Below are positions 7,565 to 60,835 of a DNA stretch of 64,000 nt, piece by piece. The notes below the pieces were generated by a model. It had not been told where the DNA came from. It ran no database searches and worked only from the letters and a program-made list of their open reading frames with translations. Position numbers and translations under genes: made by a program. This DNA is from Nitrospinota bacterium (lineage in GTDB: Bacteria > Nitrospinota > Nitrospinia > JACRGO01): NCBI GenBank assembly GCA_016212295.1, contig JACRGO010000237.1:215-64214 (forward strand). The letters run 5' to 3'. Each line of letters starts with the position of its first letter. Position 1 is the first letter of the stretch.

Positions 7565-8940
7565 AATTCGCTCATGGAAAAGATGTCCTCCGCCATCCTG
7601 ATGGGAAGCCCCATGGAGTGGAAGTTGTAAAACTTTGTTTTTGAGTTGGCCAGGATTATTTGCTCAATATAGTTTCTGTAGCTGAAAAGATTCTGGTGCG
7701 CCGCGGCCTTGCCGCCGAATCTGTCTTTCGCCAAAACCGGTTTTTGAGATTGCATTTGATTTTGATGAAAATCATCCAAGGTAGGTCCTCCGATGGAATT
7801 TTGCCATGTCTTTCCCAAGGCGTTTCCGGACGCATGAAAGCGTTTCATTGAAAAACAGCAGTCCTGTCCGAAGAGGATGATGGGATTGAACCCAAAGCGC
7901 GCCATGAGGTCGAGTCCGACGCACGCCACTGATCCCCCTTCCTGGGTTTCGCCTTTTTGTGAAAATAATTCGGCGTCCCCGCCTAAATGTTTTTTTTGGG
8001 CGGAGGCTATAAAGACCATTTTTTTCCCCTTGTAATTCCTAACCACCTCAGGATTGGAGGCAGGGGTGAAAAGGAGAACGGAATCCTGTCCGAAGCATCC
8101 CTGAAAATGCGCCAAACTATGGCTTTGAGGGTCTATGCTTGCCACGAAGTCCGGGACAATGCCCGTCTCCACTAAAATGGGGAAAGCCGTGTCTGTCGCG
8201 AAAATGCCGGCTTTGCCCCTGAGTAATTCGAGGCAGGGCAGGGCAATGTCCAGTGACGGGCCCGCGCTTGCCAATATGCCTGTTTTCCCCGTAAACCTTC
8301 CGTAAAGCCCGGCCACTCCATCTGACTCCAAGGCCGTAGCGCGATTTTTTTGAAAATTTTTTTCTTCCAGGGCGGAAAATTCAACGCTTGTCCTTTTTTC
8401 CATCCGGACCAATTCGAAAATATTTTCAAAATCCTTGAACTCTCCAGGAATGGAGGAAAGAGAAGGGGGATGGATGAGAAGCTTGCCGTTTTCCTCCCGC
8501 AGGACCTTCAAGGCGAGTTCAAATCCTTTTAGCGCGGCTTCCCTGCTTGTCCCTAATAACATGGAAACGCGGGCATCTGAAAAAATTTTTTCCAGGTCCC
8601 TGCAAGAGCAAGCGGCTTCGAGTATTTCGCCGTTGAACTCCATTACCTGGAGTCTGCCGGATGGGCCGGTCCTGTCCAGGATGGCTTCCACATGATAGCC
8701 AAATCCAAACCCGTATATAAGGATGGAATCCCCTTCGGAAATTTGGGATTTTTCAGCGAATTGTCTCGCTTCCCCAACGGGGTCAAAGGCTGAATGGATT
8801 AATCTGTTCTTGTAGCGCAAGGTCCAATCGCCGGACTTGGTCTTGATGGTCGTGCTGTTTTCCGTTGACCCGCGCCTCAAAAATCCCTTGGCCCCAGGCG
8901 CTTTTTTTTCCAATGATTCTATGTTACCGGCTATTGGCAT
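7552..8940 (-). CDS. Maf/DUF115 (MptE-like) domain protein, putative flagellin or pilin glycosyl/nonulosonate transferase
   Basis: 462 aa. The N-terminal 'LIHSAFDPVGEARQFAE' motif is typical of motility-accessory-factor (Maf) proteins, followed by a central DUF115-like core. Confidence 0.55.
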   Translation of the reverse strand: MPIAGNIESLEKKAPGAKGFLRRGSTENSTTIKTKSGDWTLRYKNRLIHSAFDPVGEARQFAEKSQISEGDSILIYGFGFGYHVEAILDRTGPSGRLQVMEFNGEILEAACSCRDLEKIFSDARVSMLLGTSREAALKGFELALKVLREENGKLLIHPPSLSSIPGEFKDFENIFELVRMEKRTSVEFSALEEKNFQKNRATALESDGVAGLYGRFTGKTGILASAGPSLDIALPCLELLRGKAGIFATDTAFPILVETGIVPDFVASIDPQSHSLAHFQGCFGQDSVLLFTPASNPEVVRNYKGKKMVFIASAQKKHLGGDAELFSQKGETQEGGSVACVGLDLMARFGFNPIILFGQDCCFSMKRFHASGNALGKTWQNSIGGPTLDDFHQNQMQSQKPVLAKDRFGGKAAAHQNLFSYRNYIEQIILANSKTKFYNFHSMGLPIRMAEDIFSMSELCAL

Positions 8941-28128: not shown

Positions 28129-28340
28129 ACCGCCAACAAATCGCTCAACACCGGTGCCCATTACGCTCCGCTTCATTCGCACGGGTTAGCCAATCAGTTA
28201 TTTTCTGCCGCCCACTTTGGGGCTTAAATCTTTTTATTCCAGTTCCGGGGGCTGACGCCCCCGGCTATACGCTTTCGGCCCTCCGGGCCTAAAAAACATG
28301 CTGGAACAGCCTCACTGACTTATGGGTCAATAGGCATTTT

Positions 28341-39159: not shown

Positions 39160-40599
39160 ATGAACATCAAAAAACTCACGGACTACAAATGGGAGATCGA
39201 GCAGGACGCGGCCAGGGGAATGCGCGTCCCCGGCATCATTTACGCTGACGATAATCTCATGCGGTTGATAGAGAAGGACAACTCCGCCGGGCAGGTGGCG
39301 AACGGCGCGACCTTGCCGGGAATAGTAAAGGGCTCAATGGCCATGCCGGACATGCACTTCGGTTACGGTCTCCCCATCGGAGGGGTCGTTGCCACGCGCA
39401 TGGAGGACGGCGTCGTGTCGCCCGGCGGCACTGGATACGACATCAATTGCGGTGTCAGGCTCTTGAGGACCAATCTGAATTCGCAAGAGGTGGAAGCCTC
39501 GGCCTTGCTTCTCGCCAATGAACTCTTTCAAAGCATACCAACAGGCGTCGGGTCCAGGGGAGACATACGCCTTTCCGGAAGGGATTACAGAGACGTGCTT
39601 ATTAACGGCGCGAGATGGGCGGTGGAAAGAGGTTACGGCGCGGTCGAGGACATCGGGCATATAGAGGCCCAGGGCCGCATGGAGGGGGCAGACCCCGCCT
39701 CAGTCGGACAAAAGGCAATGGACAGGGGCAAGGACCAGTTGGGCACCCTGGGGTCTGGAAACCATTTCCTGGAAGTGCAGGTGGTGGAGGAAATTTTTTT
39801 TCCAAAGGCGGCGGCCGCCTTTGGACTCTTCCCCGGCCAGGTCACGGTCATGATCCACACCGGCTCCAGGGGATTCGGACACCAGGTCTGCACTGATTAT
39901 TTACAGGAGATGGAGAAGGCCGTCAGGAAGTACGGTATCGAACTCCCGGACCGGCAGCTGGCCTGCGCACCCATCCAATCCCCGGAAGGAAAAAGCTATC
40001 TCTCCGCCATGAGGGCCGCCGCCAATTACGCCTGGGCCAACAGGCAATGCCTGGCCGGACTGACGGAAAGGGCCTTTGAGCGGATTTTACAAATGGGGCC
40101 TGCCGCCCTGGGCATGTCCTGCCTGTACGACGTGGCCCATAATATAGTCAAGATCGAGGAACATATAATCGGCGGAAAAAAGATGAGACTTGCGGTCCAC
40201 CGGAAAGGCGCCACAAGGTCCTTTCCGCCCCATCACCCGGAAGTCCCGGAGTCATGCAAGGAAGTGGGCCAGCCGGTTATCATTCCCGGCGACATGGGAA
40301 GGGCCTCATACGTTCTGGTCGGGACCCAGAAGGCGATGGAGGAAACCTTCGGCAGCACCTGCCACGGCGCCGGGCGCCTCCTGAGCCGGCACGCGGCCAT
40401 CAGGCAGACAAAGGGAAGGGCAATTGAAAGAGAGCTTGGGGACAAGGGCATCATCGTGAGGTCAGCCGGAAGACACACACTGAAGGAAGAGGCCCCTGAA
40501 GCCTACAAAAACGTCACCGAGGTGGTGAACGTCGTGGAAAAGGCCGGGCTCTCCCTCAAGGTCGCGCGGCTGAGGCCGATAATAGTGATAAAGGGATAA
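39160..40599 (+). CDS. rtcB: RNA-splicing ligase RtcB
   Basis: 479 aa with the conserved metal-binding and active-site motifs 'GSGNHFLEVQ', 'HTGSRGFGHQ' and 'CHGAGR'. Confidence 0.9.
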   Translation: MNIKKLTDYKWEIEQDAARGMRVPGIIYADDNLMRLIEKDNSAGQVANGATLPGIVKGSMAMPDMHFGYGLPIGGVVATRMEDGVVSPGGTGYDINCGVRLLRTNLNSQEVEASALLLANELFQSIPTGVGSRGDIRLSGRDYRDVLINGARWAVERGYGAVEDIGHIEAQGRMEGADPASVGQKAMDRGKDQLGTLGSGNHFLEVQVVEEIFFPKAAAAFGLFPGQVTVMIHTGSRGFGHQVCTDYLQEMEKAVRKYGIELPDRQLACAPIQSPEGKSYLSAMRAAANYAWANRQCLAGLTERAFERILQMGPAALGMSCLYDVAHNIVKIEEHIIGGKKMRLAVHRKGATRSFPPHHPEVPESCKEVGQPVIIPGDMGRASYVLVGTQKAMEETFGSTCHGAGRLLSRHAAIRQTKGRAIERELGDKGIIVRSAGRHTLKEEAPEAYKNVTEVVNVVEKAGLSLKVARLRPIIVIKG

Positions 40600-43740: not shown

Positions 43741-44535
43741 TTAAAAAACCAGCCTTAACTCCAAAACGCCGGTCCGCTTGTCTATCATGTATTCCCTTTC
43801 AGGAGCAAAATTTTCCGGGGCCAAATCCAGGACCTCCTGCCGCGTCCGGCATTTTCCCCCATCCGTCCCCAGAAACATGTTTATATCAAAGAGAAAATTA
43901 TAGGGATCATCCCAGGGGTCCACGAAGTGCTCTATGATGGCCAGACGCCCCTTTTCCGTGAGCGCCCCGGCGGCCTTGTTAAAAAAAAGCCTTACTGAAT
44001 CGTCGCCGTACATGTGGATCACCTGTGATATCAGGATGAAATCAAAATTTTCCCCCCAGGGAAGGTCCCGGAAATCGCCTGCTATGATTTCTCCCTGGAG
44101 TCCCTTTTCCCTTGCCAGGGCAGCGGCACTTTCAATGTCCATGTAGGTTGCTGCGATATCGGGAAATTTTTTTTGTATTCCTCTCAAATAAGGGGCCGTG
44201 CCTCCTCCCACGTCGAGCAGACGGCGGACCCCGGCCAGGTCGACCAGTTCCAGAAACGTATTAAGGGAAAATCCGGCCTTTTCCTCCTGCGCCTCCATGT
44301 AGATACGGTAGTCCTCCTCGGTTCCGTGAGGGACCTCGCGCTTATCAGGCAGTCCCTTCCAGTGCTCCGCCATCCGCTCCATCTGCCTGGCCATGTGGGG
44401 CGCTTTGATTTCCTGGGGATAAATCCGGTCCAGCGCCTTTTGAATCCTTGGGGGAAGGGGGCCGTTTTTCACCGAGGCGATCAGCAGCCTGGTCTTCCAT
44501 GCGCCGGTGAGGACGTCAAAAAATAGTTCTTCCAT
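43741..44535 (-). CDS. class I SAM-dependent methyltransferase
   Basis: 264 aa with motif I 'LLDVGGGTAPY' and the overall O-methyltransferase-like layout. Confidence 0.7.
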   Translation of the reverse strand: MEELFFDVLTGAWKTRLLIASVKNGPLPPRIQKALDRIYPQEIKAPHMARQMERMAEHWKGLPDKREVPHGTEEDYRIYMEAQEEKAGFSLNTFLELVDLAGVRRLLDVGGGTAPYLRGIQKKFPDIAATYMDIESAAALAREKGLQGEIIAGDFRDLPWGENFDFILISQVIHMYGDDSVRLFFNKAAGALTEKGRLAIIEHFVDPWDDPYNFLFDINMFLGTDGGKCRTRQEVLDLAPENFAPEREYMIDKRTGVLELRLVF

Positions 44536-44746
44536 TTTTCACTAACCCGGACAAGCCGGAACTAAAATAAAATTCCGATGTATTCAAACATTTGATGATA
44601 CCTCTTTTGGACCGCCGATTCCATGCCGCGCCATGGAACCCCGGCGCAGGATTGTGCCCCCGCAGGAAGAGGTCTGGAGGTTGATATTTTACTTCACAAT
44701 TTTTTTCACATTTTTAAAAATTGAGCAGAAGTGGTTTCGCAACCCA

Positions 44747-44791
44747 GGTCGGCGCGAAAGGATTTGAACCTCCGCCCCACCTGCTCCCAAG
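44747..44791 (-). tRNA. tRNA-Pro(TGG)-like 3' half fragment (anticodon loop to 3' end), a probable integration-site remnant
   Basis: The minus strand reads 'CTTGGGAGCAGGTGGGGCGGAGGTTCAAATCCTTTCGCGCCGACC'. This has a T-arm GGTTCAAATCC, an acceptor 3' strand and an anticodon loop CTTGGGA. No matching 5' half is present upstream. Confidence 0.5.
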
Positions 44792-45437
44792 GATATGGGG
44801 ATGAAAGGGTCATTGACAACTATCGTTACGAGGTATATTTTATATTCACTTGTTGCCGCGTTATTGGCTGGATAAATGCTGAAAGCCCGGCTCCTATAGA
44901 TTGGAAAATAGGATGGAGAATTAGAAAATGGGAGCCATCCTTCAATTTGAGTTGCTTCATTGGGAGGAAGAAATAAATGGCAATTAACAAAGCAATAGAA
45001 GAAATAAGAAAAACCCGTCATGAAATCTCTTCAAGGCACCATCACAACACTAAAGAATTATTGGAGCACTATAAACAACTGGAAAGCAAATATTCGGACA
45101 GGATTTGCGACCGGACAAGGGACAGCAAAATAATCCAGAGGACACTAAAAAGCAGCGCGGTTGATTAAGGAGCAAGCTTCGTAATCCTCAGCCGGTTCTC
45201 CTTCTCTTTCCTCGATGGCTTTCAGGTCGGATAAATATTCAAAAGTCCGTTGGGCCTAAAAACTTTGAAAATGAGCTGAAATAATTAAATCCTAAATTAT
45301 GCGGATTCGGCATAATGGTAAAACAGATTATGTTACATGGAAAATCATGGCGGACTTTAATGAATAAATGATTAACAAGCCTTGAAAGCAATAGAAGTGT
45401 TTCTGAATAAATAAACAAAGAGTATGCATAAAAATAA

Positions 45438-46055
45438 ATGTTCGCGCCGCCATTAGGCTTAAAGAATATGAACCGAATTTATCTATCAATATTAATAATA
45501 TGCTTCCTCCTTGGCACGTGTACACTTATAGCATTTGTCAAGGCTGGAGAGTCTATATCTGGGAATTTGTATCCAGAATTAATAGGCTTTTGTTTAGATG
45601 GAATATTCTTTGTAATTCTTTTTACTGTTTATGAGGGGCGAAGATTTAAAGTAGAATCAACAAAACAAAAGATTAAATTAAAGAAGAGTTTGCGAGATTT
45701 ACTCGCAATAATACTGCAATGGTCACAACCTATTAACAGCAAAATTCCTTTTAAAGAGATCATTTTAAATCCCGATAACCTCAAAGCAATTCAAAAGGAA
45801 TTAGAGTCAACAAGACGACTTGATGGAGTGCAGGCAGATTTTCTCAGAATACATGCTTTAGCAAGGATTCCTTCTATCCAAGCCGCAATTCCAGTATCTG
45901 CTACGATTGATGGAAGACATTTACAGTTATGGGACTTAATTTTAAACAATCTTCGGGCAATTGCTGAATCTACTAATGACGAAAATGCTTATGAAGCACT
46001 GTTAGATTTTATTAACTTTGTAATCAAATTTGATGAAGCTCAAGTGTCTGCCTAA
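45438..46055 (+). CDS. hypothetical membrane-anchored protein
   Basis: 205 aa. Two N-terminal TM helices are followed by a helical soluble domain. It is AT-rich and has no family match by eye. Confidence 0.35.
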   Translation: MFAPPLGLKNMNRIYLSILIICFLLGTCTLIAFVKAGESISGNLYPELIGFCLDGIFFVILFTVYEGRRFKVESTKQKIKLKKSLRDLLAIILQWSQPINSKIPFKEIILNPDNLKAIQKELESTRRLDGVQADFLRIHALARIPSIQAAIPVSATIDGRHLQLWDLILNNLRAIAESTNDENAYEALLDFINFVIKFDEAQVSA

Positions 46056-46212
46056 CAAAGAAACAGTTGCAGGAGTCAGACATTGATCTGGAACAAAAAT
46101 GGGCTTGCCTAACAACCGCCTCCACGGCAGACGCTTGACTGTCATGCGCCTTGCAAAGTTCCGCAAGCCTTACGCCAGCCTGCGCTTGTGAGGCGAGCGT
46201 TAGATTTCAAGG

Positions 46213-47067
46213 ATGCCAATGGCTATTCACTGGTCAGAATCCGAAGTCGAGGCAGCAGTTGAAGACTACTTCAACATGCTCCGCCAGGAGTTGACCGGTC
46301 GCAAATACAACAAGACCGAGCATCGCCGGGCATTAATGGAACATCTGAACAATCGGTCAGAAGGTTCGGTTGAACTGAAGCATCAAAATATCAGCGCCGT
46401 TCTGATCGAGATGGGTATTCCATACATTGACGGATACAAGCCACGTTCAAACTACCAGCGCACACTACTGCCCGCAGCGGTGTCTGATTTCCTCGCCAAT
46501 CACCCCGAGTTTCACGCGCTGTTCCAAGAGGACTCCGAGGTCGCGCCATCCATCCCATCGGTTGCGGATTTTCTCGCGGCGATGGAAGCTCCGCCAAGGC
46601 CGGAAAACAAGGGCAGCTCAACGATCGCGGAGACTCAAGCTATCTACAATCCCGCCGGTGTGAACTACCTGGAACGGGAGGCGCAAAATCATTCACTAGG
46701 AGACGCCGGGGAACAATTCGTCATCAATTTTGAGCGGGCCAGGTTAATCCACGCCGGGAAGGAATACCTCGCGGATCAAATTGAGCAAATATCAGTCTCG
46801 GTCGGCCCTTCCGCTGGGTTTGATATCCGGTCGTTTGAAGAAAACGGAACAGACCGCTTTATCGAGGCAAAAACCACGAAATACGGCAAGAGCACGCCAT
46901 TCTTCGTTACTCCCAACGAGTTGGATTTCTCACGGGAGAATGCAACCCGGTACTTTCTATACCGTGTCTTCAAGTTCCGCGCGGAACCACGCTTGTTCAC
47001 TTTGCATGGCTACTTGCAGGATCAGTGCATACTCCAGCCGTCGCAGTACTTGGCGAAGCCAGCGTGA
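46213..47067 (+). CDS. COG3183-N-terminal-domain plus DUF3883 (restriction-endonuclease-like) protein
   Basis: The N-terminus 'EAAVEDYFNMLRQELTGRKYNKTEHRRALMEHLNNRSEGSVELKHQNISAVLIEMGIPYIDGYKPRSNYQ' matches the non-catalytic N-domain of HNH-type predicted restriction enzymes. The C-terminal half 'GDAGEQFVINFE...GFDIRSFEENGTDRFIEAKTT...FFVTPNE...YFLYRVF' fits DUF3883. Confidence 0.55.
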   Translation: MPMAIHWSESEVEAAVEDYFNMLRQELTGRKYNKTEHRRALMEHLNNRSEGSVELKHQNISAVLIEMGIPYIDGYKPRSNYQRTLLPAAVSDFLANHPEFHALFQEDSEVAPSIPSVADFLAAMEAPPRPENKGSSTIAETQAIYNPAGVNYLEREAQNHSLGDAGEQFVINFERARLIHAGKEYLADQIEQISVSVGPSAGFDIRSFEENGTDRFIEAKTTKYGKSTPFFVTPNELDFSRENATRYFLYRVFKFRAEPRLFTLHGYLQDQCILQPSQYLAKPA

Positions 47068-47129
47068 AATCTGGCAATGCGTTGCAACTGGCGTATTGAC
47101 ACGATTTGATCTTTTTTATAACATGAAGG

Positions 47130-47714
47130 CGAAAATATATCCCCCCTGCTTCTTCGGAAGCAGGGCGCGAGGCCGGGGATGCCGATTTCGATACCCTCAT
47201 CGCCTGCGCCTTCAACTATGACGCCCATTCCTCGGAATTCGATAAACTGGGCCGGATTCCGGTGCTCAAGGCCAGGATGAACGCCGACCTGCACATGGCA
47301 GGCGACCTCAAGAACACCGGCAAGGGGAACCTTTTCGTCATCTTCGGAGAGCCGGACATTGACATCCTCGACGCCGGGGACGGGCAGGTGCGGGTGAAGA
47401 TCAACGGCGTGGATGTCTTTCATCCCAACACCGGAGAGATTCGCAGCGACGGCGCGGAGGGGATCGCCTGCTGGTTCATCGACACCGATTATAACGAAGA
47501 GAGCTTCTTTGTCCGCCACGCCTATTTTCTCGGGGCCAACGATCCCTACAAGTCCCTCAAAACCACCCTCAAGGCCGAGATCAACGAAGAAGCCTGGGGT
47601 ACCCTGAACAGCGACACCTCCCGCCCCTTCCGGAAACCAAAATCCGGTCGGATCGCGGTAAAGGTGATCAATCATCTGGGGGATGAGGTGATGAAGGTGT
47701 TTCGTCTGAAATGA
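47130..47714 (+). pseudogene. orphan C-terminal fragment of a DNA methyltransferase (type III Mod / type IIG-like)
   Basis: The frame opens right after an in-frame TGA with no start or N-terminal catalytic domain. The C-terminal 'EAWGTLNSDTSRPFRKPKSGRIAVKVINHLGDEVMKVF' resembles the conserved tail of adenine-specific Mod-type methyltransferases. It is GC-rich, unlike its neighbours. Confidence 0.4.
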
Positions 47715-47744
47715 TAGAATTTTGTATTTTAGAACATTGAAAGA

Positions 47745-49258
47745 GTGTTCACGGGAGTGTCTGCCATGCGCCTGACTATCGAACAGCTCCAAAGCATTAT
47801 GAACTCCACGGAAGGGGAGCATTTCGAATTCAAGGAAGCCAAAACCAAATTTCATTTTGAGAAGCTCCTTAAATATTGTGCTGCTTTAGCGAATGAGGGT
47901 GGTGGGGAAATGGTTCTCGGCGTTACCGACAAACGGCCAAGACATGTGGTTGGAACTCAGGTGTTTTCTCAACCGGAACGGACGAGAAGCGGGCTTATTG
48001 AAAAGCTGCGTTTAAATATCAATTTTGATGAAGTCCAGCATCAAAATGGGCGCGTCCTGATTTTTCACGTTCCCTCTCGCCCCGTCGGAATGCCGATCAA
48101 GGCGGAAGGCGTTTACTGGGAACGAAAAGCCGACAGCTTGGTTCCTATGTCTGAAAATCGGCTTCGTGAAATCTTCTCCGAGGCAGGGCATGACTTTTCA
48201 GCCCAGATATGTTCAGGCGCAACAATAGCTGATTTGATCCCGGCGGCCATTGAAGATTTCCGGAACCGGTGGCTTATCAAGTCAAACAATCCCGGTTTAT
48301 CCACGTTGAGCCATGAACAGCTTCTTTCCGACGCCGAAGCGGTTGTTGATGGTTATCTTACCTATGCCGCGTTGATCTTGTTCGGAACAAAACAAGCTCT
48401 GGGCAAGTGTTTAGCCCAATCCGAGGTGGTTTTTGAATATCGGTCTTCCGATGCCTCAGGTCCAGCCCAGCATCGAGAAGAATTTAGAGAAGGGTTTTTC
48501 AGTTATTATGAAAAATTATGGAAGTTGATTAATTTGCGTAATGATATCCAGCACTTTCAGTCAGGTTTATTCCTGCTGGATATCCCGACTTTTTCGGAAC
48601 GGCCAGTTCGAGAAGCTGTCTTAAACGCCGTCAGCCACCGGGATTATCAGCTCGGAGGCAGCATCTTTATTCGCCAATATCCAAGGAAGTTGGTGTTTGA
48701 GAATCCAGGCGGATTTCCGGTTGGCATAAATCTCGATAATATCCTTGATCGCCAGTCGCCGCGCAATCGCCGCATCGCGGATATTTTTGCAAAATGTGGT
48801 CTTGTGGAGCGTTCCGGTCAAGGCATGAACCTGATGTTTGAGCGAAGCATTCAGGAAAGCAAAGCAATACCTGATTTTTCCGGCACTGATCAGTACCAAG
48901 TGATATTGAAAATCGCCTTCAACCTCGATTACAGACACTAGTGTCAAAAGGCGTCATCGAGCGCTTTGGCCGTGGGCGCGGTGTTAAATACATTCTCAGC
49001 CGTCAATATTATCAGATGGTAGGGAGTAGGGGTGTATATACGAGAAAGAAGGGATTGGATCGTGAAACAAACAAGACCTTACTTTTGAAACATATCGTTG
49101 AAAATTCCGAAACCGGAAGCCGCCTCAAGGAACTGAGACAAGTGCTTCCTTCGTTATCAATGCCACAAGTGCAAACCCTGCTTAGAGAACTTAAATTAGA
49201 AAGAAAAATTCATAAAACTGGAGCTACACGAGCGGCTCTTTGGCATGCCAATCTTTAA
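47745..49258 (+). CDS. Schlafen/AlbA_2-domain ATPase-like protein (COG2865 family) split by a frameshift at 48941
   Basis: ORF 47745..48941 has an N-terminal AlbA_2-like 'EGEHFEFKEAKTKF...' and a HATPase_c_4-like middle. ORF 48941..49258 (GTG start overlapping the TAG) carries 'GVIERFGRGRGVKYIL' and a wHTH, which normally forms the C-terminus of the same polypeptide. Confidence 0.6.
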
Positions 49259-49384
49259 TAAATCTATTGCATCAGCAAAAAAATCTAATTGCAATCCAAA
49301 TGCAATATAATACCCCAAGGTCTTTAATTACAAATAGTTAATATATATCGCTATTTAATTTGATATATAAAATTATGCAATAAA

Positions 49385-51457
49385 ATGGAATTTCGAATAG
49401 CCGATACCTTTACCGACAGCCTTTCCAAACTTAACGGAGAGGAACAGAAGGCCGTCAAGACCACCGCCTTCGACCTCCAGATGAATCCAGCCAATCCGGG
49501 GATGCAGTTTCATAAACTGGACAGGGCCAAGGACGCCAATTTCTGGTCAGTCCGTGTGAGCCGGGACATCCGATTAATTGTCCACAAAACAAAATCCAGC
49601 CTCCTGCTCTGCTATGTCGGGCACCATGATGACGCCTATCACTGGGCCGAACGGCGAAAACTGGAAACGCACCCGAAGACCGGCGCCGCGCAGATGGTTG
49701 AAGTTAGGGAGACCATAAAAGAAATCACCATCCCCAAATATGTTGAGGTTGAGCAACCCGTACCTTCCAAGCCCTCCCTGTTTTCGGATGTGTCCGACAA
49801 TGAACTCCTGAATTACGGTGTGCCGTCCGAGTGGTTGAACGATGTGCGGAAAGCCAATGAGGACAGCCTATTGGAACTGGCCGGCCACTTGCCAGGCGAG
49901 GCAGCCGAGGCGTTGCTCAATCTGGCCACCGGGGTGACGCCGCAAATCGCACAGCCGGGTTCCACTGAAGTTGATCCCTTTGACCATCCCGACGCCAAGC
50001 GGCGGTTCCGGGTGATGAACAATGTCGAGGAACTTGAACGTGCCCTGGAATATCCCTGGGAGAAATGGACTGTCTTTCTTCACGCCGCGCAACAGGAGTA
50101 TATAGAACAGGATTACACCGGCCCGGCAAGGATTTCCGGTTCCGCTGGCACTGGCAAGACTATTGTGGCCCTCCATCGAGCGGTTTTTCTTGTCCGTTCC
50201 AACCCTGAAGCCAGGGTGTTGCTCACCACATTCTCCGATACCTTGGCGAATGCACTGAGAACAAAATTGAGACGCCTGATCTGCAACGAACCGAGTCTGG
50301 GCGAACGTCTGGAAGTTTACGCCATGAATCAAATTGGCCTCAGACTCTATGAACTGAATTCTGGACGTCCACGGATCGCATCCCGAAAAGATATCAAGCA
50401 ATTTCTTGAAGAAGCCTCCATTCAAATAGAAGGACACAAGTTTACCCTGCATTTCCTGATGACGGAGTGGGAGGAGGTTGTTGACGCATGGCGGTTGGAA
50501 ACCTGGAAGGCGTACCGCGATGTTACGCGACTGGGAAGAAAAACGCGTCTGCCGGAGAAACAACGTGCCATGCTCTGGTCTATTTTTGAACGTGTGAGGT
50601 CCAATCTGAAGACCCGGAATCTTGTAACATACTCCGCCTTGTTCAGTCGTCTGACGTCTCAACTGGGTAAAAGCAAGCACCCGCCTTTTGATTTCGTCGT
50701 TGTGGACGAGGCACAAGATGTTAGTGTGGCTCAATTGCGGTTTCTGGCTGCCCTTGGGGCCAGACGAAAGGACAGCCTTTTTTTTACCGGAGACCTTGGG
50801 CAGAGGATTTTCCAGCAACCCTTCTCCTGGAAGGAACTTGGCATTGATATTCGCTGGCGTTCCCGCACACTGAGAATTAATTACCGCACCTCACACCAGA
50901 TCAGAATACAGGCTGATCGGTTGTTGGGACCTGAGTTGTCCGACGTGGACGGCAATGCAGAAGAACGGCGCGGTACAATTTCTGTTTTCAACGGGCAAAA
51001 TCCAACTATTATGATTTTAGATAGTCAGAAAGAAGAAATTAAAATGGCCGGCAAATGGATATCGGACCGTATAGGGGAAGGCTTAGCGCCAAGCGAGATA
51101 GGCGTTTTTGTCCGTTCCGAAGCGGAACTGGACAGGGCGCGGACCGCTGTTAAAAAAACGGGCTTGCCCTATAAGGTTCTCGACGAGAAGGTCGAAACAA
51201 CCGCCGGAAATATTTCCATCAGTACCATGCACCTTGCCAAGGGCCTGGAGTTCCGCGCCGTTGCTGTGATGGCCTGTGATGATGAGGTTCTTCCCTTGCA
51301 AGAAAGAATCGAATCCGTAGCGGATGATTCCGACCTGGAAGAGGTTTACAACACGGAACGTCATTTGCTTTACGTAGCCTGTACCCGGGCACGGGACTAT
51401 CTTCTTGTAACAAGTGTTGATCCGGCATCGGAATTCATTGATGATTTGAAGATGTGA
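49385..51457 (+). CDS. UvrD/Rep-like SF1 helicase with N-terminal RelE/ParE-like domain
   Basis: 690 aa. The N-terminal roughly 90 aa 'FWSVRVSRDIRLIVHKTKSSLLLCYVGHHDDAYHWAE' fits the RelE/ParE toxin-fold consensus. The rest has Walker A 'GSAGTGKT', a DEAQD box 'VVVDEAQDV' and C-terminal UvrD motifs 'ISTMHLAKGLEFRAVAVM...VACTRARDYL'. Confidence 0.7.
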   Translation: MEFRIADTFTDSLSKLNGEEQKAVKTTAFDLQMNPANPGMQFHKLDRAKDANFWSVRVSRDIRLIVHKTKSSLLLCYVGHHDDAYHWAERRKLETHPKTGAAQMVEVRETIKEITIPKYVEVEQPVPSKPSLFSDVSDNELLNYGVPSEWLNDVRKANEDSLLELAGHLPGEAAEALLNLATGVTPQIAQPGSTEVDPFDHPDAKRRFRVMNNVEELERALEYPWEKWTVFLHAAQQEYIEQDYTGPARISGSAGTGKTIVALHRAVFLVRSNPEARVLLTTFSDTLANALRTKLRRLICNEPSLGERLEVYAMNQIGLRLYELNSGRPRIASRKDIKQFLEEASIQIEGHKFTLHFLMTEWEEVVDAWRLETWKAYRDVTRLGRKTRLPEKQRAMLWSIFERVRSNLKTRNLVTYSALFSRLTSQLGKSKHPPFDFVVVDEAQDVSVAQLRFLAALGARRKDSLFFTGDLGQRIFQQPFSWKELGIDIRWRSRTLRINYRTSHQIRIQADRLLGPELSDVDGNAEERRGTISVFNGQNPTIMILDSQKEEIKMAGKWISDRIGEGLAPSEIGVFVRSEAELDRARTAVKKTGLPYKVLDEKVETTAGNISISTMHLAKGLEFRAVAVMACDDEVLPLQERIESVADDSDLEEVYNTERHLLYVACTRARDYLLVTSVDPASEFIDDLKM

Positions 51458-51575
51458 TCCGCAGGAATACCTTTAGATGCGCATAGAAGTGAGTAAGTCT
51501 TACATTTCCAAGGTCTTAACTGACTGTCCATAAAACCTTCCGAAAAAAGGTTTTGTAACCCATTGATTTAATGCA

Positions 51576-51773
51576 CTACCATAGAAAGGAGTTGCCCCTC
51601 GCCTTTTTTCTCTTGACCAGGAGGGTGTCCCTGGTGATGAGGACCCGGCCCTCCGCCAAGGCCAGCTCCACAAGCTCGCCGTCTTCCATGCCGGGGAAGC
51701 ATTCCACGTCGCAGCCCAGGATGCGCATCCACTTCGCCAACCGGCCCAGCATGCCGTCCACGAGGAATTTCAT
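51576..51773 (-). pseudogene. Mut7-C/DUF82 (PIN-like RNase) N-terminal fragment
   Basis: 65 aa. The 'MKFLVDGMLGRLAKWMRILGCDV' N-terminus is typical of Mut7-C proteins, but the zinc-ribbon C-terminal half is missing. The ORF stops about 120 bp from the helicase gene end. Confidence 0.45.
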
Positions 51774-51828: not shown

Positions 51829-52314
51829 TCATTCCAGAAGGACCAAGCCGAAGAATTGGGCGGTTTCAGGGTCATGGCTTAAATCGTACCCGAATTTTCT
51901 GACAGTGCCGAACACGTCAATGCCCATTGCTTCCATTGAGGGCCGCGCCTCCTCGGTCTTCACGCAAGGACGGTCATCCGGGCACTCCTCGCAGAGTCCG
52001 CATGGCCCTGACCCCATGCCGAATGCCTTGAAAAAACCCAGTTCCACGGCCTTTTTCTCTATCTCCGTTACCGCCCACCGTATCTTCCAGGATGCATGGT
52101 CGTGGATCAGCAGGGCGGTGTTGTATTCGGAAAAAATTTGCCTGGAGAAAAAGGGCGGGGGAGGAAATGGGGGGCAAGAGTACCTTTTACCGAACTCCCC
52201 GCACCCGTACCGGCACTTGAATAAAACCCAGGGCGCGGTTTGAATGTCCTTACTCTCAATGAGCAGGATTTCCTTGAGGTCCAGTTCTTTTTTCAAAGCC
52301 AGGAGATTTTTCAT
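51829..52314 (-). CDS. predicted metal-binding protein (DUF2284-like)
   Basis: 161 aa with Cys clusters 'CRYGCGEF...YSCPP' and 'CGLCEECP'. Confidence 0.45.
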   Translation of the reverse strand: MKNLLALKKELDLKEILLIESKDIQTAPWVLFKCRYGCGEFGKRYSCPPFPPPPFFSRQIFSEYNTALLIHDHASWKIRWAVTEIEKKAVELGFFKAFGMGSGPCGLCEECPDDRPCVKTEEARPSMEAMGIDVFGTVRKFGYDLSHDPETAQFFGLVLLE

Positions 52315-54662: not shown

Positions 54663-55778
54663 ATCGTCAAATTTGTATTCTTCGGTTAAAAATGAGTTCA
54701 AGGCCATGTGGATAAGGCGGGGGTTCAGTCCGCGCTTGAGTCCCAAGCATATCTTTTCAAACATCTTCATCTTTATTTGAAGTTCATCCATCAGCGCCTT
54801 CTTTTTGTTTTTTAAAACCTCATCCGCATCCAACGGCATCCAGCCGTCCACCGCCATCAACAGGCCCTGATTCCAGTAAGGGGTTGACCCTTCAGCATAA
54901 GTTTCCAGGATCAATATGCCCTCATGTCTTGCCTTGCACACATACGCGACTATATTTTTTATAACCTCCCCATCGTTCATGGCATCGGTGATTGGCTTGG
55001 GTTCCTGCCGGCTTGTTTCCTCAAAAAACGCCTCGGCGGTTAATGGAGCGTCCGGAAACAACGAATTGAGTTTTTTCATTAGCAAATAGGGGTTGTCCCC
55101 ATCGCCAAGCCCTCTAATTCCAATTCGCATCATTTCCAATCTCCGCCCGGATTCGTATAAAACGGACCGGCGTTTTTTCTCCGCTTCCGAAACTATTTGC
55201 CCGGCGGAGCAATCATCCAGGGTCATTTCAAAGAGATACCTGCTGAAGGGATCTTTTATTTTGTCCATGATCGCGTCAAGAACAAGGGGGCTCTCTCTTC
55301 GGACTTCCCGGCAGACAGGGAGCCAGTATTTCATGATTTCCTTAAAGGAAGCCTTGGTTAAATAAAATTCTCCCATTTCCTCCCTGTCCCCTGATTTTTC
55401 CCGTTCTTCTTTATAGTCCCCAATTAAAACTTCCTTTTCCTGGCGCAAAATTATGTAACCCCTTTCTTCATATTTTCTGACGAGGCCAAGGATTTTTTCT
55501 TGAACTTCCTTGATCTCCTTTAAAAAGGGATATTTATCCGCGCTGGATTCATGAAATCGAGTATATTCCGCTAAAATGTATTCAATGGAACGCCTCCTTA
55601 CCCGGTTTACATTGTTTAAAACCCTTATTTGAAGTTGCTCAGGCTCATTTAACATGGCCAGGGCGATGGTATCATTGAGGAGCCCGTCCTCCCCGGAAGC
55701 GCCCCACAAAACTATTTGCAACGACCTGTCATCAAGAAGCCTCAGAATCTCTATTCCGTGTTTTTCAAATGGGTCCAT
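54600..55778 (-). CDS. hypothetical protein
   Basis: 392 aa, helical and soluble, with no recognisable motif. Confidence 0.4.
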   Translation of the reverse strand: MDPFEKHGIEILRLLDDRSLQIVLWGASGEDGLLNDTIALAMLNEPEQLQIRVLNNVNRVRRRSIEYILAEYTRFHESSADKYPFLKEIKEVQEKILGLVRKYEERGYIILRQEKEVLIGDYKEEREKSGDREEMGEFYLTKASFKEIMKYWLPVCREVRRESPLVLDAIMDKIKDPFSRYLFEMTLDDCSAGQIVSEAEKKRRSVLYESGRRLEMMRIGIRGLGDGDNPYLLMKKLNSLFPDAPLTAEAFFEETSRQEPKPITDAMNDGEVIKNIVAYVCKARHEGILILETYAEGSTPYWNQGLLMAVDGWMPLDADEVLKNKKKALMDELQIKMKMFEKICLGLKRGLNPRLIHMALNSFLTEEYKFDDLFGAQEIVGGADAEHQRPLF

Positions 55779-56057
55779 TTAACGCCTATTTTCGTTTTTC
55801 TTTAAAACAACTTTAAAATCTCGCTTATTCTTCCTGATCATCCTGGAATATAAACGATAAGGCAATGCCAATGGCTGAGCCCAAAGGAAGGCCCAATGCA
55901 GTATTGTCCACAGCCAATCCCAACGTGGACAAGCCACAACCAAACAAGGTTAGAAATATTTTGCCAAAATTGGTTGAAATATTATTGATAAGACACTAAT
56001 GAAAGGCCAATGGAAATGCCAATTAGAAACCAGAATGAATCCATTATGTAATTTTTT

Positions 56058-56960
56058 TTATTCCATCTTAATCATAGCTTTAATATTTATAGCCGACAGC
56101 CCTTCCTGCTCGTCAATAATGTCCAGGGCGCCAATGCCGTTGATGGATTTGGCCCCCGCCATTAGCTTCAATATGAAGTCGTCCTTTTCCCCGCTAAAGG
56201 GAAAGGCATAAACGGAGGTATGCTGTGTGGAATCGTAAGTCCTCTTGGGGCTTTTCCCTGCGGCCTCCCTGATTATTTGCGAAAATCTGATGGAGGTCTC
56301 GGAATCAAGGACATTGGATATCAGGAGATGAATGGATTTGCCGTTCTTCGCCATGTCATTTATCTTCTCCTGGATTTTAGTGGTCAGGAACGCGGCTGTA
56401 TCCCTGGCCGCCTTGATTTTCGCTGTTTTCATGCTGCTCCCCATGCCGGTCTTATTCCCGGTAAGCACGGCCAGAACGTCCGCGCTTTTGGGGTCCACCA
56501 CCTTCAGTTCTTCCACGATGAGCTTGACCACGTAAAACCCTGAGTCCTTTCCCATGTCCTGAAACTCATGATTCGCGGATACGGTGTAATCCGCGGAAAG
56601 CGCGCCTGCCAGGGAGTTGAGCACCTTGGATTCGCTCTCCGCCAATGCGCCTTTTGAGAGTTCCGCGTCATCGTATTTTTCCTGAAGCGACCCCATGACG
56701 GTTTCCTGTACGCCCTTGTCCCGCAACTGGCTAGCGTAATGTTCTTTCGCTTTTTTGAGATCGCTGTCGGCAACAACCCTAAAGCCCTGTTTCTGAAACT
56801 CCGACTGAAAGGCTGTGGAGAGGGTGGCGTCTTTGCTGTAAAAAAGGAAGAGGGGGGAGGGCGTGTTATCCTGGGCTTGGGCGAAGTCAGGACCAGGCAC
56901 AAAGGCACAGAGGCACAAAGGCAGAAAGATAAAAAAATTAAAGAATCGTTTTAATGACAT
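56058..56960 (-). CDS. secreted (lipo)protein, LPP20/FlgP-like domain(s)
   Basis: It has a signal peptide ('FIFLPLCLCAF'). Segments such as 'GFYVVKLIVEEL' and 'AKIKAARDTAAFLTTKIQEKI' resemble LPP20-family lipoproteins. Confidence 0.4.
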   Translation of the reverse strand: MSLKRFFNFFIFLPLCLCAFVPGPDFAQAQDNTPSPLFLFYSKDATLSTAFQSEFQKQGFRVVADSDLKKAKEHYASQLRDKGVQETVMGSLQEKYDDAELSKGALAESESKVLNSLAGALSADYTVSANHEFQDMGKDSGFYVVKLIVEELKVVDPKSADVLAVLTGNKTGMGSSMKTAKIKAARDTAAFLTTKIQEKINDMAKNGKSIHLLISNVLDSETSIRFSQIIREAAGKSPKRTYDSTQHTSVYAFPFSGEKDDFILKLMAGAKSINGIGALDIIDEQEGLSAINIKAMIKME

Positions 56961-57098
56961 TTTTAACGGCTCCTTGTTCAGGGTTCAGGGTTCAGGGTTC
57001 AGGGTTGGAAGAACCCTGGCCTTTTAATTTTTGATGGTTAATTGGATATAAAAGACGCCGTGTAACCGGTAACCGTGAACCATGAACGCTTACCAAAT

Positions 57099-58331
57099 TC
57101 ACAAGCCACCGAATTTGTCTTTCAGGACGCTTGCCAATTGCCCTTGAATGTTCTTCGTTATTTTCTCCACTTCTTTTTCAATGTCGTTTTCGTTCATGTA
57201 TGTCCCGCCTTTTTCGATGTTCGCGGTTGTTTTAAGTCCGCCCGTCGCCGTGTCGTAAACATTCAATTGAAGCGTTCCTTTTACCCCTCCCGCCGCTTCC
57301 TCCCCTTTTCGTTCCGAAATTTCCACCAGGAATTGGGCGTCGATTACATAGTTGGCCGCTTCCGCCAGGGTTTTCCCGGACCTGTCTTCAAACCAGCGCA
57401 AGGCGGCTTGATTCAGAGAGGCATCGTTGACCCAGGTTATATTCTGGCCTTCCAAAAAATTTCCCACTCCAGTCTTCAAGGCTTCCTGATGCTGGGGGTA
57501 TTTTTTGTCAGGTTGGGTCTTGGACACGATGATGAACTTTTTTGCCGCAATGCCTTTTAAATGGAAGGGGGCGAGACGGGCGGGGATGGCAACGGAGACG
57601 GTAGAATAATTCTGGCTGCCCGCATCCGTGAGCAAGGACATCTTGACCTGGTATTCGTTTCCAGCCTGGCCGATTTCCGTTTTCACGGTCCAGTGGACCG
57701 AAGCGCCCTTTTTATCAAAGACATTGGGATAGGGAGAACTCTTCGTCCATATTCCGCCCAGCGTCTTGCGGATATATTCCCCCAGCCCCGGCTCCGGCTT
57801 CCCTTGGAATACCGGCTCCTCCATGAAGAAGTTCTGGTCGATGGCGGAAAAATGCGTATCCTCCACAAGCTTTTGAAGATAATCGTCAAAATGCTCCTGG
57901 TATAGGGAAGGCCATTTGGTTTCCAGGGATTTTATTTCGTAGGAGGCCAGTTTTCCGCCGGTTTTCGTGTCGATGATCTTCGCGTACAGTTCCGCTTTTT
58001 CGCCTTTCAGGCGGATGAAACCGGTGAGCGAGTATCCTGTCTTGGCGCCTAAATAGGGGAGCATAACCCCCTTCTTGCCTTCATTCTTGAGCAGATTCAC
58101 CAACGCATCGTTCAAAAAGCGGGTCAGGGGAATAATCTTGTTTTCCTTGGTCTTGAATAGGTCGATGGAGACCAAAAGCTCGTCTTGTTTGATTTGCCTT
58201 TCCAGGTTTTGGACGATCTCGCACGCCAGAGACGCCGCGTATTCCTTTTCGTCCGCGTAGGCATGGGGAAGAAAGACTATAGTGCATAACAGTATATATA
58301 AAGGCAGTATGAATCTAAGCCTTCCAAGCAT
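57099..58331 (-). CDS. secreted hypothetical protein
   Basis: 410 aa with an N-terminal signal peptide. No family recognised. Confidence 0.4.
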   Translation of the reverse strand: MLGRLRFILPLYILLCTIVFLPHAYADEKEYAASLACEIVQNLERQIKQDELLVSIDLFKTKENKIIPLTRFLNDALVNLLKNEGKKGVMLPYLGAKTGYSLTGFIRLKGEKAELYAKIIDTKTGGKLASYEIKSLETKWPSLYQEHFDDYLQKLVEDTHFSAIDQNFFMEEPVFQGKPEPGLGEYIRKTLGGIWTKSSPYPNVFDKKGASVHWTVKTEIGQAGNEYQVKMSLLTDAGSQNYSTVSVAIPARLAPFHLKGIAAKKFIIVSKTQPDKKYPQHQEALKTGVGNFLEGQNITWVNDASLNQAALRWFEDRSGKTLAEAANYVIDAQFLVEISERKGEEAAGGVKGTLQLNVYDTATGGLKTTANIEKGGTYMNENDIEKEVEKITKNIQGQLASVLKDKFGGL

Positions 58332-58529
58332 TTGACCAAGCCCTCCTTTTTATTGATTGACATGGCGCGGCCTTTGCTTTTCCACCGCAACTTTAGCTCG
58401 CCTTGCCACTGTGGCACAGGTAAAGGACACTCCCATAGCGGCCTGCACAACCGACTCTATAAAGAGCGCATCAACCGCATTAAGGCATGTTGGTTTTTAA
58501 GCCTGCCCTGACGCGTCGGCGGCCGATTG

Positions 58530-59273
58530 TCATTTTGCCTGCCGTCCGGTATTAGGCTTATTTCCGGCGTTGCCGCCACCAACCGCATTGAACATTCCGC
58601 CAAACACACCGCCGATGGTTCCCAAAGCTTCTTGGGCCTCTTGCTTTCCCTCTTCCCGCTTTTGGGCCTTTCTCATTTTCTCTTTTTCGTCTTGCGGGAT
58701 GTCCATCTTCGCAATTTCTTGCTGTTCCTTATCTGTCAGCACGGATTCTTTTGTGAAATTTTTCAGAAGCTCGTCCGCGACTTTATCCGCCAAAAAATCA
58801 TAATCATTCTCATTTGCCTGGGCCTTCACGGAAGTGACAACCTGCTTGGAGCCAACGTCAATGAATCTTGCCGTAAGTATTAAGTTAGTTTTAGACTTCG
58901 TCAATTTGGAAACAACGATTTTGGTGGCGCCAAGGCTCTCGACCATTTTGGCTTGATCCTCTTCGCTCATTTTAAACTTTCCTCCTTCAAGAGAGGAGTC
59001 CCTTTCCTTCATGGCGAGTTGCAATTGAGAGCGTTCAAATATGACCAATTTAGTGGATCGAGAAAAAATATCTGTAAAAGTATCCACCACTCCTTTGGCA
59101 TATTCCGAGGCTCCTTCCACCGCGTTTTCGCAATCAAAAATAGCAATCTTATCTTTCTCACCCGCTACGGCGGTTCCTGAGCAGAACTGAATAATGCAGA
59201 GAAGCATTAATAAAGATGAAAGAAGCGATAGAAAAACGCCATTGATGGTTTTTATTGTTTTTTTCGCAGTCAT
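58530..59273 (-). CDS. CsgG/LpoB-fold lipoprotein
   Basis: It has a signal peptide with lipobox-like 'IQFCSG'. 'KIAIFDCEN...YAKGVVDTFTDIFSRSTKLVIFERSQLQLAMKE' matches the CsgG/LpoB-like pattern. The C-terminal tail is disordered and Gly-rich. Confidence 0.5.
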   Translation of the reverse strand: MTAKKTIKTINGVFLSLLSSLLMLLCIIQFCSGTAVAGEKDKIAIFDCENAVEGASEYAKGVVDTFTDIFSRSTKLVIFERSQLQLAMKERDSSLEGGKFKMSEEDQAKMVESLGATKIVVSKLTKSKTNLILTARFIDVGSKQVVTSVKAQANENDYDFLADKVADELLKNFTKESVLTDKEQQEIAKMDIPQDEKEKMRKAQKREEGKQEAQEALGTIGGVFGGMFNAVGGGNAGNKPNTGRQAK

Positions 59274-59578
59274 TTTATTCCTCCTGTTTTTTATTCTGTC
59301 ATGATTTTTTGGGGTATATAAAACCGGGATTCTTCGTCGCGGAATTTATACTGAGTGAAACGAATGTGCTCCTCAGTTAATATGTAGGCCGTGACAAAGC
59401 GTCGGAATCATTTTTAAAATGGATAGAAAAATCATTGCCTTTAAAAATATCACATGCCTTTCTCCTCCTCCTTTTAAAAAAATATTGGAAAATGAAATAC
59501 CGTGAAACTGCTTCATGTTTTCAATGCTTGGTTGTCCCACCCCCCTTCCTATAAAAATAAACCGATTGCCCTTATTCC

Positions 59579-60322
59579 TTATTCCATCACAACACTCATC
59601 TCCAGCTTTACCCCATTAGCATTCTCTTCCAGCCAGTTTTCCTCTGCCGTGTCCAATAATTTCATAGCGTTGTCTTTGGATAAACCGTGCTCTTTTGTCA
59701 GTTTCTTTAAAAGATCTTGCTTCGCCGCCCTGCGCGTGTTTTCTTTCATGGTTCGAATCAATCCTATCTCGTCTTTGTCCGCATGATAATCACGCAGGGT
59801 TTTAACCTTCTTTTTTTGAGACTCCAGATCCAATTCAAAAAAATACTGCTTGGTGTTAGACAGGACCTTGCCGTCTTTTCTGTTTATGGCCTTATAAGAG
59901 AGACGGACCCCTTTTTCTTCCGCCCACATGCTTCCCACAATCAAGAGGTCAATTCCAACCTTGGATAAGTATTCCTCCCCATCTTCATCTTTTGAGCCAA
60001 AACGCTCATTTTCCTTTGCCAGCTTTTCCAGGTCCGCTCGTTCCACGAAGGCATGATTTTTTCCGCCCCTTGTAATGAGAGCGGACATCAAGCCGTCGTT
60101 AAACTTTTTTGCTGTTTCAGGGGAAATAGGTCCCTCTTTTTTTTCGAATTCCCGAATGCCGATTTTAAAGGAACTGTTGAGTGGGGATAAAATTTCTTCC
60201 GCCATCTGACTGAAGTTAGTCTCGTATGCGGTTTGGCCGGCAAAGGAGGGTGGAGAAAAAAAGAGGTAAAAAATAAAGAGGTAAAAAATCAGCCTGGTTT
60301 TCAAGATCGAGGTTTTATTCAT
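59579..60322 (-). CDS. CsgG/LpoB-fold lipoprotein paralog
   Basis: The likely start is MNKTSIL (internal Met of ORF 59579..60514), with a signal peptide. 'KIGIREFEKKEG...FNDGLMSALITRGGKNHAFVERADLEKLAKE...GIDLLIVGSM' shows the same fold signature as 58530..59273. Confidence 0.5.
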   Translation of the reverse strand: MNKTSILKTRLIFYLFIFYLFFSPPSFAGQTAYETNFSQMAEEILSPLNSSFKIGIREFEKKEGPISPETAKKFNDGLMSALITRGGKNHAFVERADLEKLAKENERFGSKDEDGEEYLSKVGIDLLIVGSMWAEEKGVRLSYKAINRKDGKVLSNTKQYFFELDLESQKKKVKTLRDYHADKDEIGLIRTMKENTRRAAKQDLLKKLTKEHGLSKDNAMKLLDTAEENWLEENANGVKLEMSVVME

Positions 60323-60361
60323 TTGACAACCCTTTCCGTTTTCTTTTAAGATTAAACCATT

Positions 60362-60835
60362 ATGAGAATTAAACTCTTCCATAAAAGCCTCTTCCCTGTT
60401 TTCGCCTTTGTCTGGCTTTCTTTCTCCCCTAATCCCGGTTTTGCCGTGGAGACCGCGCCCAGAATAACCGACCGCGAGATCGTGGAAAAATTGTCCCGGC
60501 TGGAAGAAGGGCAAAAAAGCATTGATAAACGGTTTGAGGATGTTAATAAGCGCATCGACGATCTTCGCTCCGAGATGAACAACCGGTTTAACGACCTGAA
60601 CCAGCGGTTCAGCGTCCTGCAGTGGATGTTCGGTGTATTCATTACCATCGCCCTCGCTATTTTCGCGGCCATCGCCAGGGTTTTATGGGACCAGAACCGA
60701 AGCCGCGCCGCCCATGAAAAAATCATCCAAAACCTGTCCGGCGAAATAGAATCCCTCAAGCAAACCGACCTTAAACTCATGGACCAGATCCGGGCCCTTA
60801 TCGAGGCCCTCAAGCCTCCCAGGGGGGTTTTGTGA
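60362..60835 (+). CDS. DUF1640-like coiled-coil protein with C-terminal TM helix
   Basis: 157 aa. 'IDKRFEDVNKRIDDLRSEMNNRFNDLNQRFSVLQWMFGVFITIALAIFAAI' is a paralog of 5488..5940. Confidence 0.5.
   Translation: MRIKLFHKSLFPVFAFVWLSFSPNPGFAVETAPRITDREIVEKLSRLEEGQKSIDKRFEDVNKRIDDLRSEMNNRFNDLNQRFSVLQWMFGVFITIALAIFAAIARVLWDQNRSRAAHEKIIQNLSGEIESLKQTDLKLMDQIRALIEALKPPRGVL

Follow-up and report, generated by a model that had tools for sequence, protein, structure and literature searches.

The window analysed here is a 64-kb stretch of chromosomal DNA from a marine Nitrospinota MAG, with genes for ATP synthase, anthranilate synthase, RtcB, DnaJ and similar proteins. On its minus strand, at 44747-44791, lies what appears to be one half of a tRNA gene. 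The question that this locus raises is what broke that gene: an integrase that used it as an attachment site, as an earlier note on this DNA had proposed, or some less specific event; a further possibility to be considered is that the half has a function of its own.

The 45-nt fragment, which reads CTTGGGAGCAGGTGGGGCGGAGGTTCAAATCCTTTCGCGCCGACC on the minus strand, corresponds to positions 32-75 of tRNA-Pro(UGG) and extends from the anticodon loop to A73-CC; it is a pseudogene or the relic of an att site. The anticodon loop is CUUGGGA (anticodon UGG) and the 3' strand of the anticodon stem is GCAGG; the T-arm is complete (GGAGG/UUCAAAU/CCUUU) and the 3' strand of the acceptor stem, CGCGCCG, leads into A73 and CC. 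When the sequence was cut at 44791, which lets Infernal report a 5'-truncated match, the Rfam tRNA model aligned over positions 31-71 of 71 with 16.8 bits (E 0.15 over 4227 families). A chance resemblance is excluded because 37 IMG/VR loci carry the motif of 25 specified bases, TTGGGAGCAGG-N-GGAGGTTCAAATCC, and 24 of these loci are complete tRNA-Pro(UGG) genes. Homology to tRNA-Pro ends at position 30/31; the limit is placed there because C31 and C32 still match the cctgcc/TTGGGA variant, and C31, at 44792, may be part of the fragment too. The copy looks mildly degenerate already, since its variable loop has 6 nt (TGGGGC) where all 37 comparable loci have 5, its T-stem includes two G-U pairs, and its 3' terminus is CCT instead of CCA.

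No complete tRNA accompanies this half. ARAGORN called no tRNA in the whole 64-kb window, the 19 kb to the right of the fragment included; at the gathering thresholds of Rfam the sole match in the window was to the Acido-Lenti-1 RNA, and cmscan at E<=10 on 44500-45000 returned no untruncated tRNA match. Sequence resembling the 5' half of tRNA-Pro was not found anywhere in the window (best blastn-short match 13 nt, E at least 0.36), neither beside the fragment nor downstream of it, as a permuted arrangement would have it. ARAGORN, cmscan and the 5'-half search also led us to reject the possibility that an indel, an intron or a permuted order hides a complete tRNA. The earlier note had named the recovery of a complete gene, once an indel is allowed, as the observation that would overturn it; this was looked for at 44747-44791 and none was recovered. 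Its description of the locus, a 3' half of tRNA-Pro(TGG) without a 5' half that matches from the anticodon loop through the T-arm to the acceptor end and then stops, is thus borne out by the parse of the sequence, the 5'-truncated Rfam match and the lack of a 5' half in the 64 kb, with the limit of homology now set at position 30/31. The Acido-Lenti-1 RNA (RF01687) is an observation in its own right: it is a full-length match at 28245-28290 on the plus strand, scoring 49.3 bits where the gathering threshold is 37, in a MAG that belongs to neither of the two phyla after which this RNA is named.

It had further been suggested that the identical 45-mer be sought at a full tRNA-Pro gene. None was found, either in the window, which holds no second copy with up to 3 mismatches, or as an exact match among 185,579 species-representative genomes. 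A relaxed Pro(UGG) pattern gave 0 matches in the same genomes, although this pattern was too strict in requiring both TTGGGA and this particular acceptor strand; neither the 45-mer nor the pattern thus pointed to a cognate intact gene in these genomes. At 8517-8529 the window agrees with the T-loop region over 13 nt; these lie within a 462-aa coding gene, and the resemblance was put down to chance. The two island ends were searched for direct repeats and none was seen, no 10-mer of the fragment recurring at the other end, and around the fragment loop there were no arm-type repeats, significant short repeats or stem-like symmetry. The fragment with its flank matched nothing in phage and plasmid collections, and a 26-mer from the flank matched nothing in viral contigs. 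A metagenome scan for a 27-mer that includes the unusual CCTTT strand of the T-stem gave one match, in the soil contig L011 (Ga0137395_10001764). There, too, the matching sequence (2782-2830) is an orphan T-arm/acceptor fragment; a non-identical tRNA-Pro(GGG) lies 4 kb away at 6802-6879. The fragment is downstream of it, and the genes that separate the two are DUF3800 and hypothetical ones, with no integrase among them. This contig is unrelated, and the case is suggestive but uninformative.

How, then, does the break compare with those that integrases are known to leave? Displaced 3' tDNA fragments at islands and prophages integrated in tRNA genes were reportedly described by Reiter in 1989 and by Williams in 2002. 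The fragment breaks at the 5' edge of the anticodon loop, which places it in the commonest att class. In the Islander collection a 3' fragment is present in 3760 of 3919 islands and 2083 of the 3919 have anticodon-centred attP sites, the anticodon centre being the commonest crossover sublocation of tyrosine integrases that target tRNA genes (PMC4383910). The window resembles this anticodon-centred 'A' class in having a 3' half that starts from the anticodon loop, in DNA that is absent from relatives, and in a cargo of defence and toxin-antitoxin genes (PMC4383910).

Furthermore, half-tRNAs of the same isoacceptor are found next to integrases elsewhere. Besides the 24 complete genes, the 37 IMG/VR loci with the motif include 13 half-tRNAs without a tRNA call, every one of which begins at the anticodon stem or loop, and 8 of the 10 that were examined have a tyrosine integrase gene, or the arm-binding domain of one, at a distance of about 30-220 nt. 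The half-sites in L023, L024, L025, L036, L043, L047, L050 and L051 share with the window both TTGGGAGCAGG ... GGAGGTTCAAATCC and the 5' boundary; what sets them apart is a PF00589 integrase at about 30-220 nt and a variable loop of 5 nt, neither of which the window copy has. The halves of enteric proL(GGG) at prophage ends show the same anatomy. In these enterobacterial tRNA-Pro(GGG) half-sites (L003-L006, L008, L010) the break is likewise in the anticodon region and the T-arm/acceptor strand is one base off that of the window (CCTCT vs CCTTT), but the isoacceptor is GGG and not UGG, the host phylum is unrelated, and the prophages are recognisable.

At the locus itself the picture is more mixed. 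A Pfam search that covered every ORF of the island and every window ORF of at least 150 aa found no integrase gene, and a six-frame Pfam scan with X-masked translations found no integrase remnant in the intergenic DNA of the island. Of the features by which Islander defines an island, the displaced tDNA fragment (usually 3', from an anticodon-loop or T-loop sublocation) is present and the interval is absent from related genomes, namely L015, L017 and L020, where the empty site carries no tRNA gene; an intact cognate tDNA on the 5' side, in the same replicon and orientation, is lacking within the 64-kb window, as is a PF00589 tyrosine integrase between tDNA and fragment. Nor does the fragment have the anatomy of an attP site, a half-tRNA identity block beside int with arm-type repeats, since there is no int and there are no repeats. 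Unlike the Islander islands, therefore, the window has an interval with neither integrase nor cognate tDNA within 64 kb and a fragment that is degenerate, and the locus passes no Islander filter except for the fragment itself (PMC4383910). Because the integrase and, within the window, the intact tDNA are missing, we file the locus as a scar and not as a definable island: the fragment is an old orphaned scar in a much-remodelled locus and marks no boundary of a recognisable integrative element. The proposal that it is the footprint of an integrase-mediated insertion accordingly stands in part. It is favoured by the position at an island edge, the break in the anticodon loop and the viral precedents beside integrases; it is weakened by the lack of an integrase or integrase remnant, an intact tRNA-Pro or a repeat in the window, by empty sites that have no tRNA, by a 3' flank that is itself variable and by the neutral rate at which the fragment changes.

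The borders of the island were drawn by comparison with contigs of relatives, found through their homologues of the methyltransferase and of DUF2284. Those of the close relatives are short (1.3-5.9 kb), and the interval from Mut7-C to the methyltransferase is completely seen in the window strain alone; exact-protein look-ups with window proteins gave matches solely in short contigs of sample SRR12113407, in the same arrangement. The core O-methyltransferase gene (43741-44535, minus strand) forms the left flank, on the 3' side of the fragment. To the right are a Mut7-C RNase-domain gene (51576-51773, minus), truncated after residue 64 of 151, then the core DUF2284 gene (51829-52314, minus) and, beyond it, a radical-SAM gene. 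In L015, L017 and L020, more distant relatives in which the methyltransferase or DUF2284 is 64-68% identical to that of the window, the methyltransferase follows immediately after DUF2284, at most 77 nt away, and there is no tRNA gene in the gap; nor was a tRNA gene seen between DUF2284/Mut7-C and the methyltransferase in any of the relatives examined. The closer relatives L018 (96%) and L019 (83%) have DUF2284 followed by a complete Mut7-C of 151 aa, and their homology to the window ends at 51583, inside that gene. On the left, L021, whose methyltransferase is 80% identical, loses homology upstream of that gene at window position 44600, past which it has unrelated AT-rich DNA without a tRNA. 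From these limits of homology and from the adjacency in relatives, the strain-variable segment is taken to be 44601-51582, about 7 kb between the core DUF2284/Mut7-C and O-methyltransferase genes, with its right-hand breakpoint at 51582/51583 inside Mut7-C.

Both the half-tRNA and its 146-nt 3' flank (44601-44746, minus strand) are inside this segment; the flank is common to L014, a sister strain whose methyltransferase is 89% identical, and is absent from L021. Between the half-tRNA and the start of the methyltransferase the flank contains a perfect 10+10 palindrome at 44619-44638 (TTCCATGCCG/CGCCATGGAA), which is the same in L014 as in the window and is not followed by a run of T. A second strain-variable block was seen farther to the right, where about 5.7 kb of the window (54699-60439), encoding five lipoprotein-like or unknown proteins, stands against L018 1481-1580; the block is absent from L018, which is 87-92% identical there and has the flanks adjacent.

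Since the 3' flank of the fragment is itself variable DNA, a model in which an island inserted into a resident tRNA gene is not demonstrated at this locus. The fragment may instead have been made elsewhere, as an end, of attP type or an att remnant, that belonged to a foreign element, and have arrived along with its 146-nt flank and the adjoining PIN toxin module; entry could have been at a secondary, non-tRNA site, or strains could have exchanged the entire hotspot by homologous recombination. Such import departs from the integrase explanation, of which it is a variant, solely in the place where the scar was made, and we hold it to be possible, if on the doubtful side. Relatives without the island have no tRNA at the site, the 44601-44746 flank is not in L021, the PIN toxin beside the fragment has counterparts of 80-85% identity in other phyla and travels on integrative islands, and the sole other metagenome match to the 27-mer is another orphan fragment in an unrelated contig, all of which is consistent with import. 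However, the contigs of close relatives are short and show the interval incompletely, which leaves room for a resident tRNA-Pro in the immediate ancestor, and searches of viral contigs, phages and plasmids did not turn up the flank.

To the right of the fragment, on the side that its 5' half would occupy, the segment combines defence-type genes with several gene wrecks, a content that is typical of islands. The VapC/PIN toxin gene survives as a 32-nt relic (44914-44945, plus strand); it is intact in L014 (1088-1579, 163 aa), and the equivalents of L014 positions 1130-1395 and 1428-1576 have been lost from the window by two deletions. The 63-aa partner gene of the PIN module (44977-45168, plus) is conserved in L014. 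The toxin belongs to a very widely exchanged family (5718 matches) and is 80-85% identical to proteins of Brocadiaceae, Scalindua, Desulfatiglandaceae and other phyla, and neither it nor the 63-aa protein has close relatives in viral contigs. The module of PIN and small gene is also the cargo of an island made up of tRNA-Val(GAC), an integrase and an Xis-like HTH_17 gene, seen in L060 (PIN gene at 2816-3295) and in about 24 marine metagenome contigs. Its PIN module is 81-84% identical in nucleotides to that of L014, and a 56-aa version of the 63-aa gene has 84% nucleotide identity. The window keeps the PIN relic and the 63-aa gene; the tRNA-Val(GAC) island differs from it in the target tRNA and in having both an integrase and an intact tRNA, and the homology is confined to the toxin module.

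Cargo specific to the window starts with a 205-aa ORF (45438-46055, plus; G+C 0.36), in a 1-kb stretch of 36% G+C where the window typically has 45-55%. Pfam, NCBIfam, PADLOC and PHROGs gave no match to it, and in its place L014 has, beyond window position 45440, an unrelated 179-aa gene. It is followed by the candidate defence protein PDC-S36, with a NOV_C/DUF3883 domain (PF13020; 46213-47067, plus; full length, E 2.9e-105), and by the 150-aa C-terminal remnant of a Type III DNA methyltransferase (47262-47714, plus), an enzyme of some 980 aa when complete, of which only the last 150 or so are left (profile positions 818-982 of 983). A 277-aa antisense ORF that overlaps this remnant (47022-47855) is probably spurious. 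Further to the right are a Schlafen/AlbA_2 protein with HATPase_c_4 (47745-48941, plus; Pfam scan), a 105-aa ORF without a family match in profile searches (48941-49258, plus) and, from the same searches, a UvrD/GajB-like superfamily-1 helicase (49385-51457, plus).

The truncated neighbours, Mut7-C, PIN and the Type III methyltransferase, fit an element that has since been eroded, and they also speak for an alternative: that a tRNA-Pro pseudogene was cut by an ordinary deletion or by illegitimate recombination, with an integrase never involved and the break in the anticodon loop a coincidence. Deletions that are not site-specific have occurred at this locus, having cut Mut7-C at residue 64, PIN to 32 nt and the methyltransferase to 150 aa, and an integrase, a repeat and a partner tRNA are all missing from the window. 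Yet the end of the fragment is at most 1-2 nt from the preferred crossover site, the 5' edge of the anticodon loop, and few of the approximately 76 positions of a tRNA would mimic this; it is the 3' half that has been kept, as in 3760 of the 3919 mapped islands (PMC4383910); and identical half-tRNA-Pro(UGG) fragments are integrase-associated elsewhere. An ordinary truncation is considered possible but unlikely.

The methyltransferase-proximal 840 nt of the variable region, fragment included, are shared with L014, which allows the evolution of the fragment to be followed directly. The two copies differ at 5 of 45 positions, and the flanking non-coding DNA is identical at 100 of 109 and 53 of 58 positions. 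In L014 the anticodon has changed from TGG to TGA, and a change of G50 to U breaks a pair of the T-stem. Because the 5 changes in 45 equal the rate of the surrounding non-coding DNA, and have hit both the anticodon and a T-stem pair, the fragment is a neutrally decaying relic; it is maintained neither as an RNA gene nor as a conserved protein-binding site or an active att site. Consistent with this, its fold is no better than that of shuffled sequence (z -1.2). Neither a complete cloverleaf nor structure-preserving change between orthologues, which would be expected of a functional tRNA gene, is observed. The comparison also shows that the fragment is older than the split from L014.

These observations bear on the idea that the half is a functional tRNA-like element, either one part of a split gene joined by RtcB or a decoy or target of the PIN/VapC toxin. 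An RtcB RNA ligase gene is indeed present 4 kb away (39160-40599, plus), although no evidence links RtcB to the half-tRNA, and a weak sigma-70-like match lies just upstream of the fragment on the minus strand. VapC-type PIN toxins are known to cut tRNAs in the anticodon loop. A split or permuted tRNA should, however, have a separate 5' half, a split at 37/38 and conservation of both halves: there is no 5' half in the window, the break is at 30/31-32 and not at the canonical 37/38 splice position, and the L014 copy, with its altered anticodon and broken T-stem, has changed at the neutral rate. The fold, being no better than shuffled sequence, gives no support either, and the PIN gene is itself deleted in the window. 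A functional half is thus extremely improbable. Even when the two forms of an expressed half with its own role, a split tRNA-Pro joined by RtcB and a decoy or substrate of VapC/PIN, are taken together with an element that uses a tRNA-like attP in a non-tRNA hotspot, the probability is very small.

The explanation that we favour, and think probable, is that the fragment is the non-functional remnant of an attachment site in tRNA-Pro(UGG), left by an old integrase-mediated insertion that has since been eroded. An element with a tyrosine integrase would have recombined with a tRNA-Pro(UGG) gene through a crossover in the anticodon loop, and the element would then have been bounded on one side by a 3' half that lacks its 5' half. 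Deletions and the replacement of cargo would later have removed the integrase, the partner copy and most of what the element first contained, and the orphan half-tRNA would remain, drifting neutrally, at the methyltransferase-proximal edge of the 7-kb variable defence island. The fragment, its missing 5' half, its position in variable DNA, its neutral rate and the deletional decay of its neighbours are direct observations; from them we infer that an integrase caused the break, and that the scar either arose at this locus or arrived with imported DNA. An isolated tRNA half is weak evidence when taken alone, and in this case integrase, partner tRNA and repeat have all disappeared and the empty sites are without a tRNA.

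The locus is a degenerate instance of a textbook phenomenon; there is nothing categorically new in it, and no new mechanism. Its value lies in what the fragment says of the DNA around it. It gives a minimum age for the acquisition, which took place before the split from L014, a relative that is still about 90% identical. It also flags 44601-51582 as horizontally acquired and repeatedly remodelled DNA in a poorly sampled phylum, and the main interest of the finding is in annotating this segment as a defence-gene hotspot of Nitrospinota.
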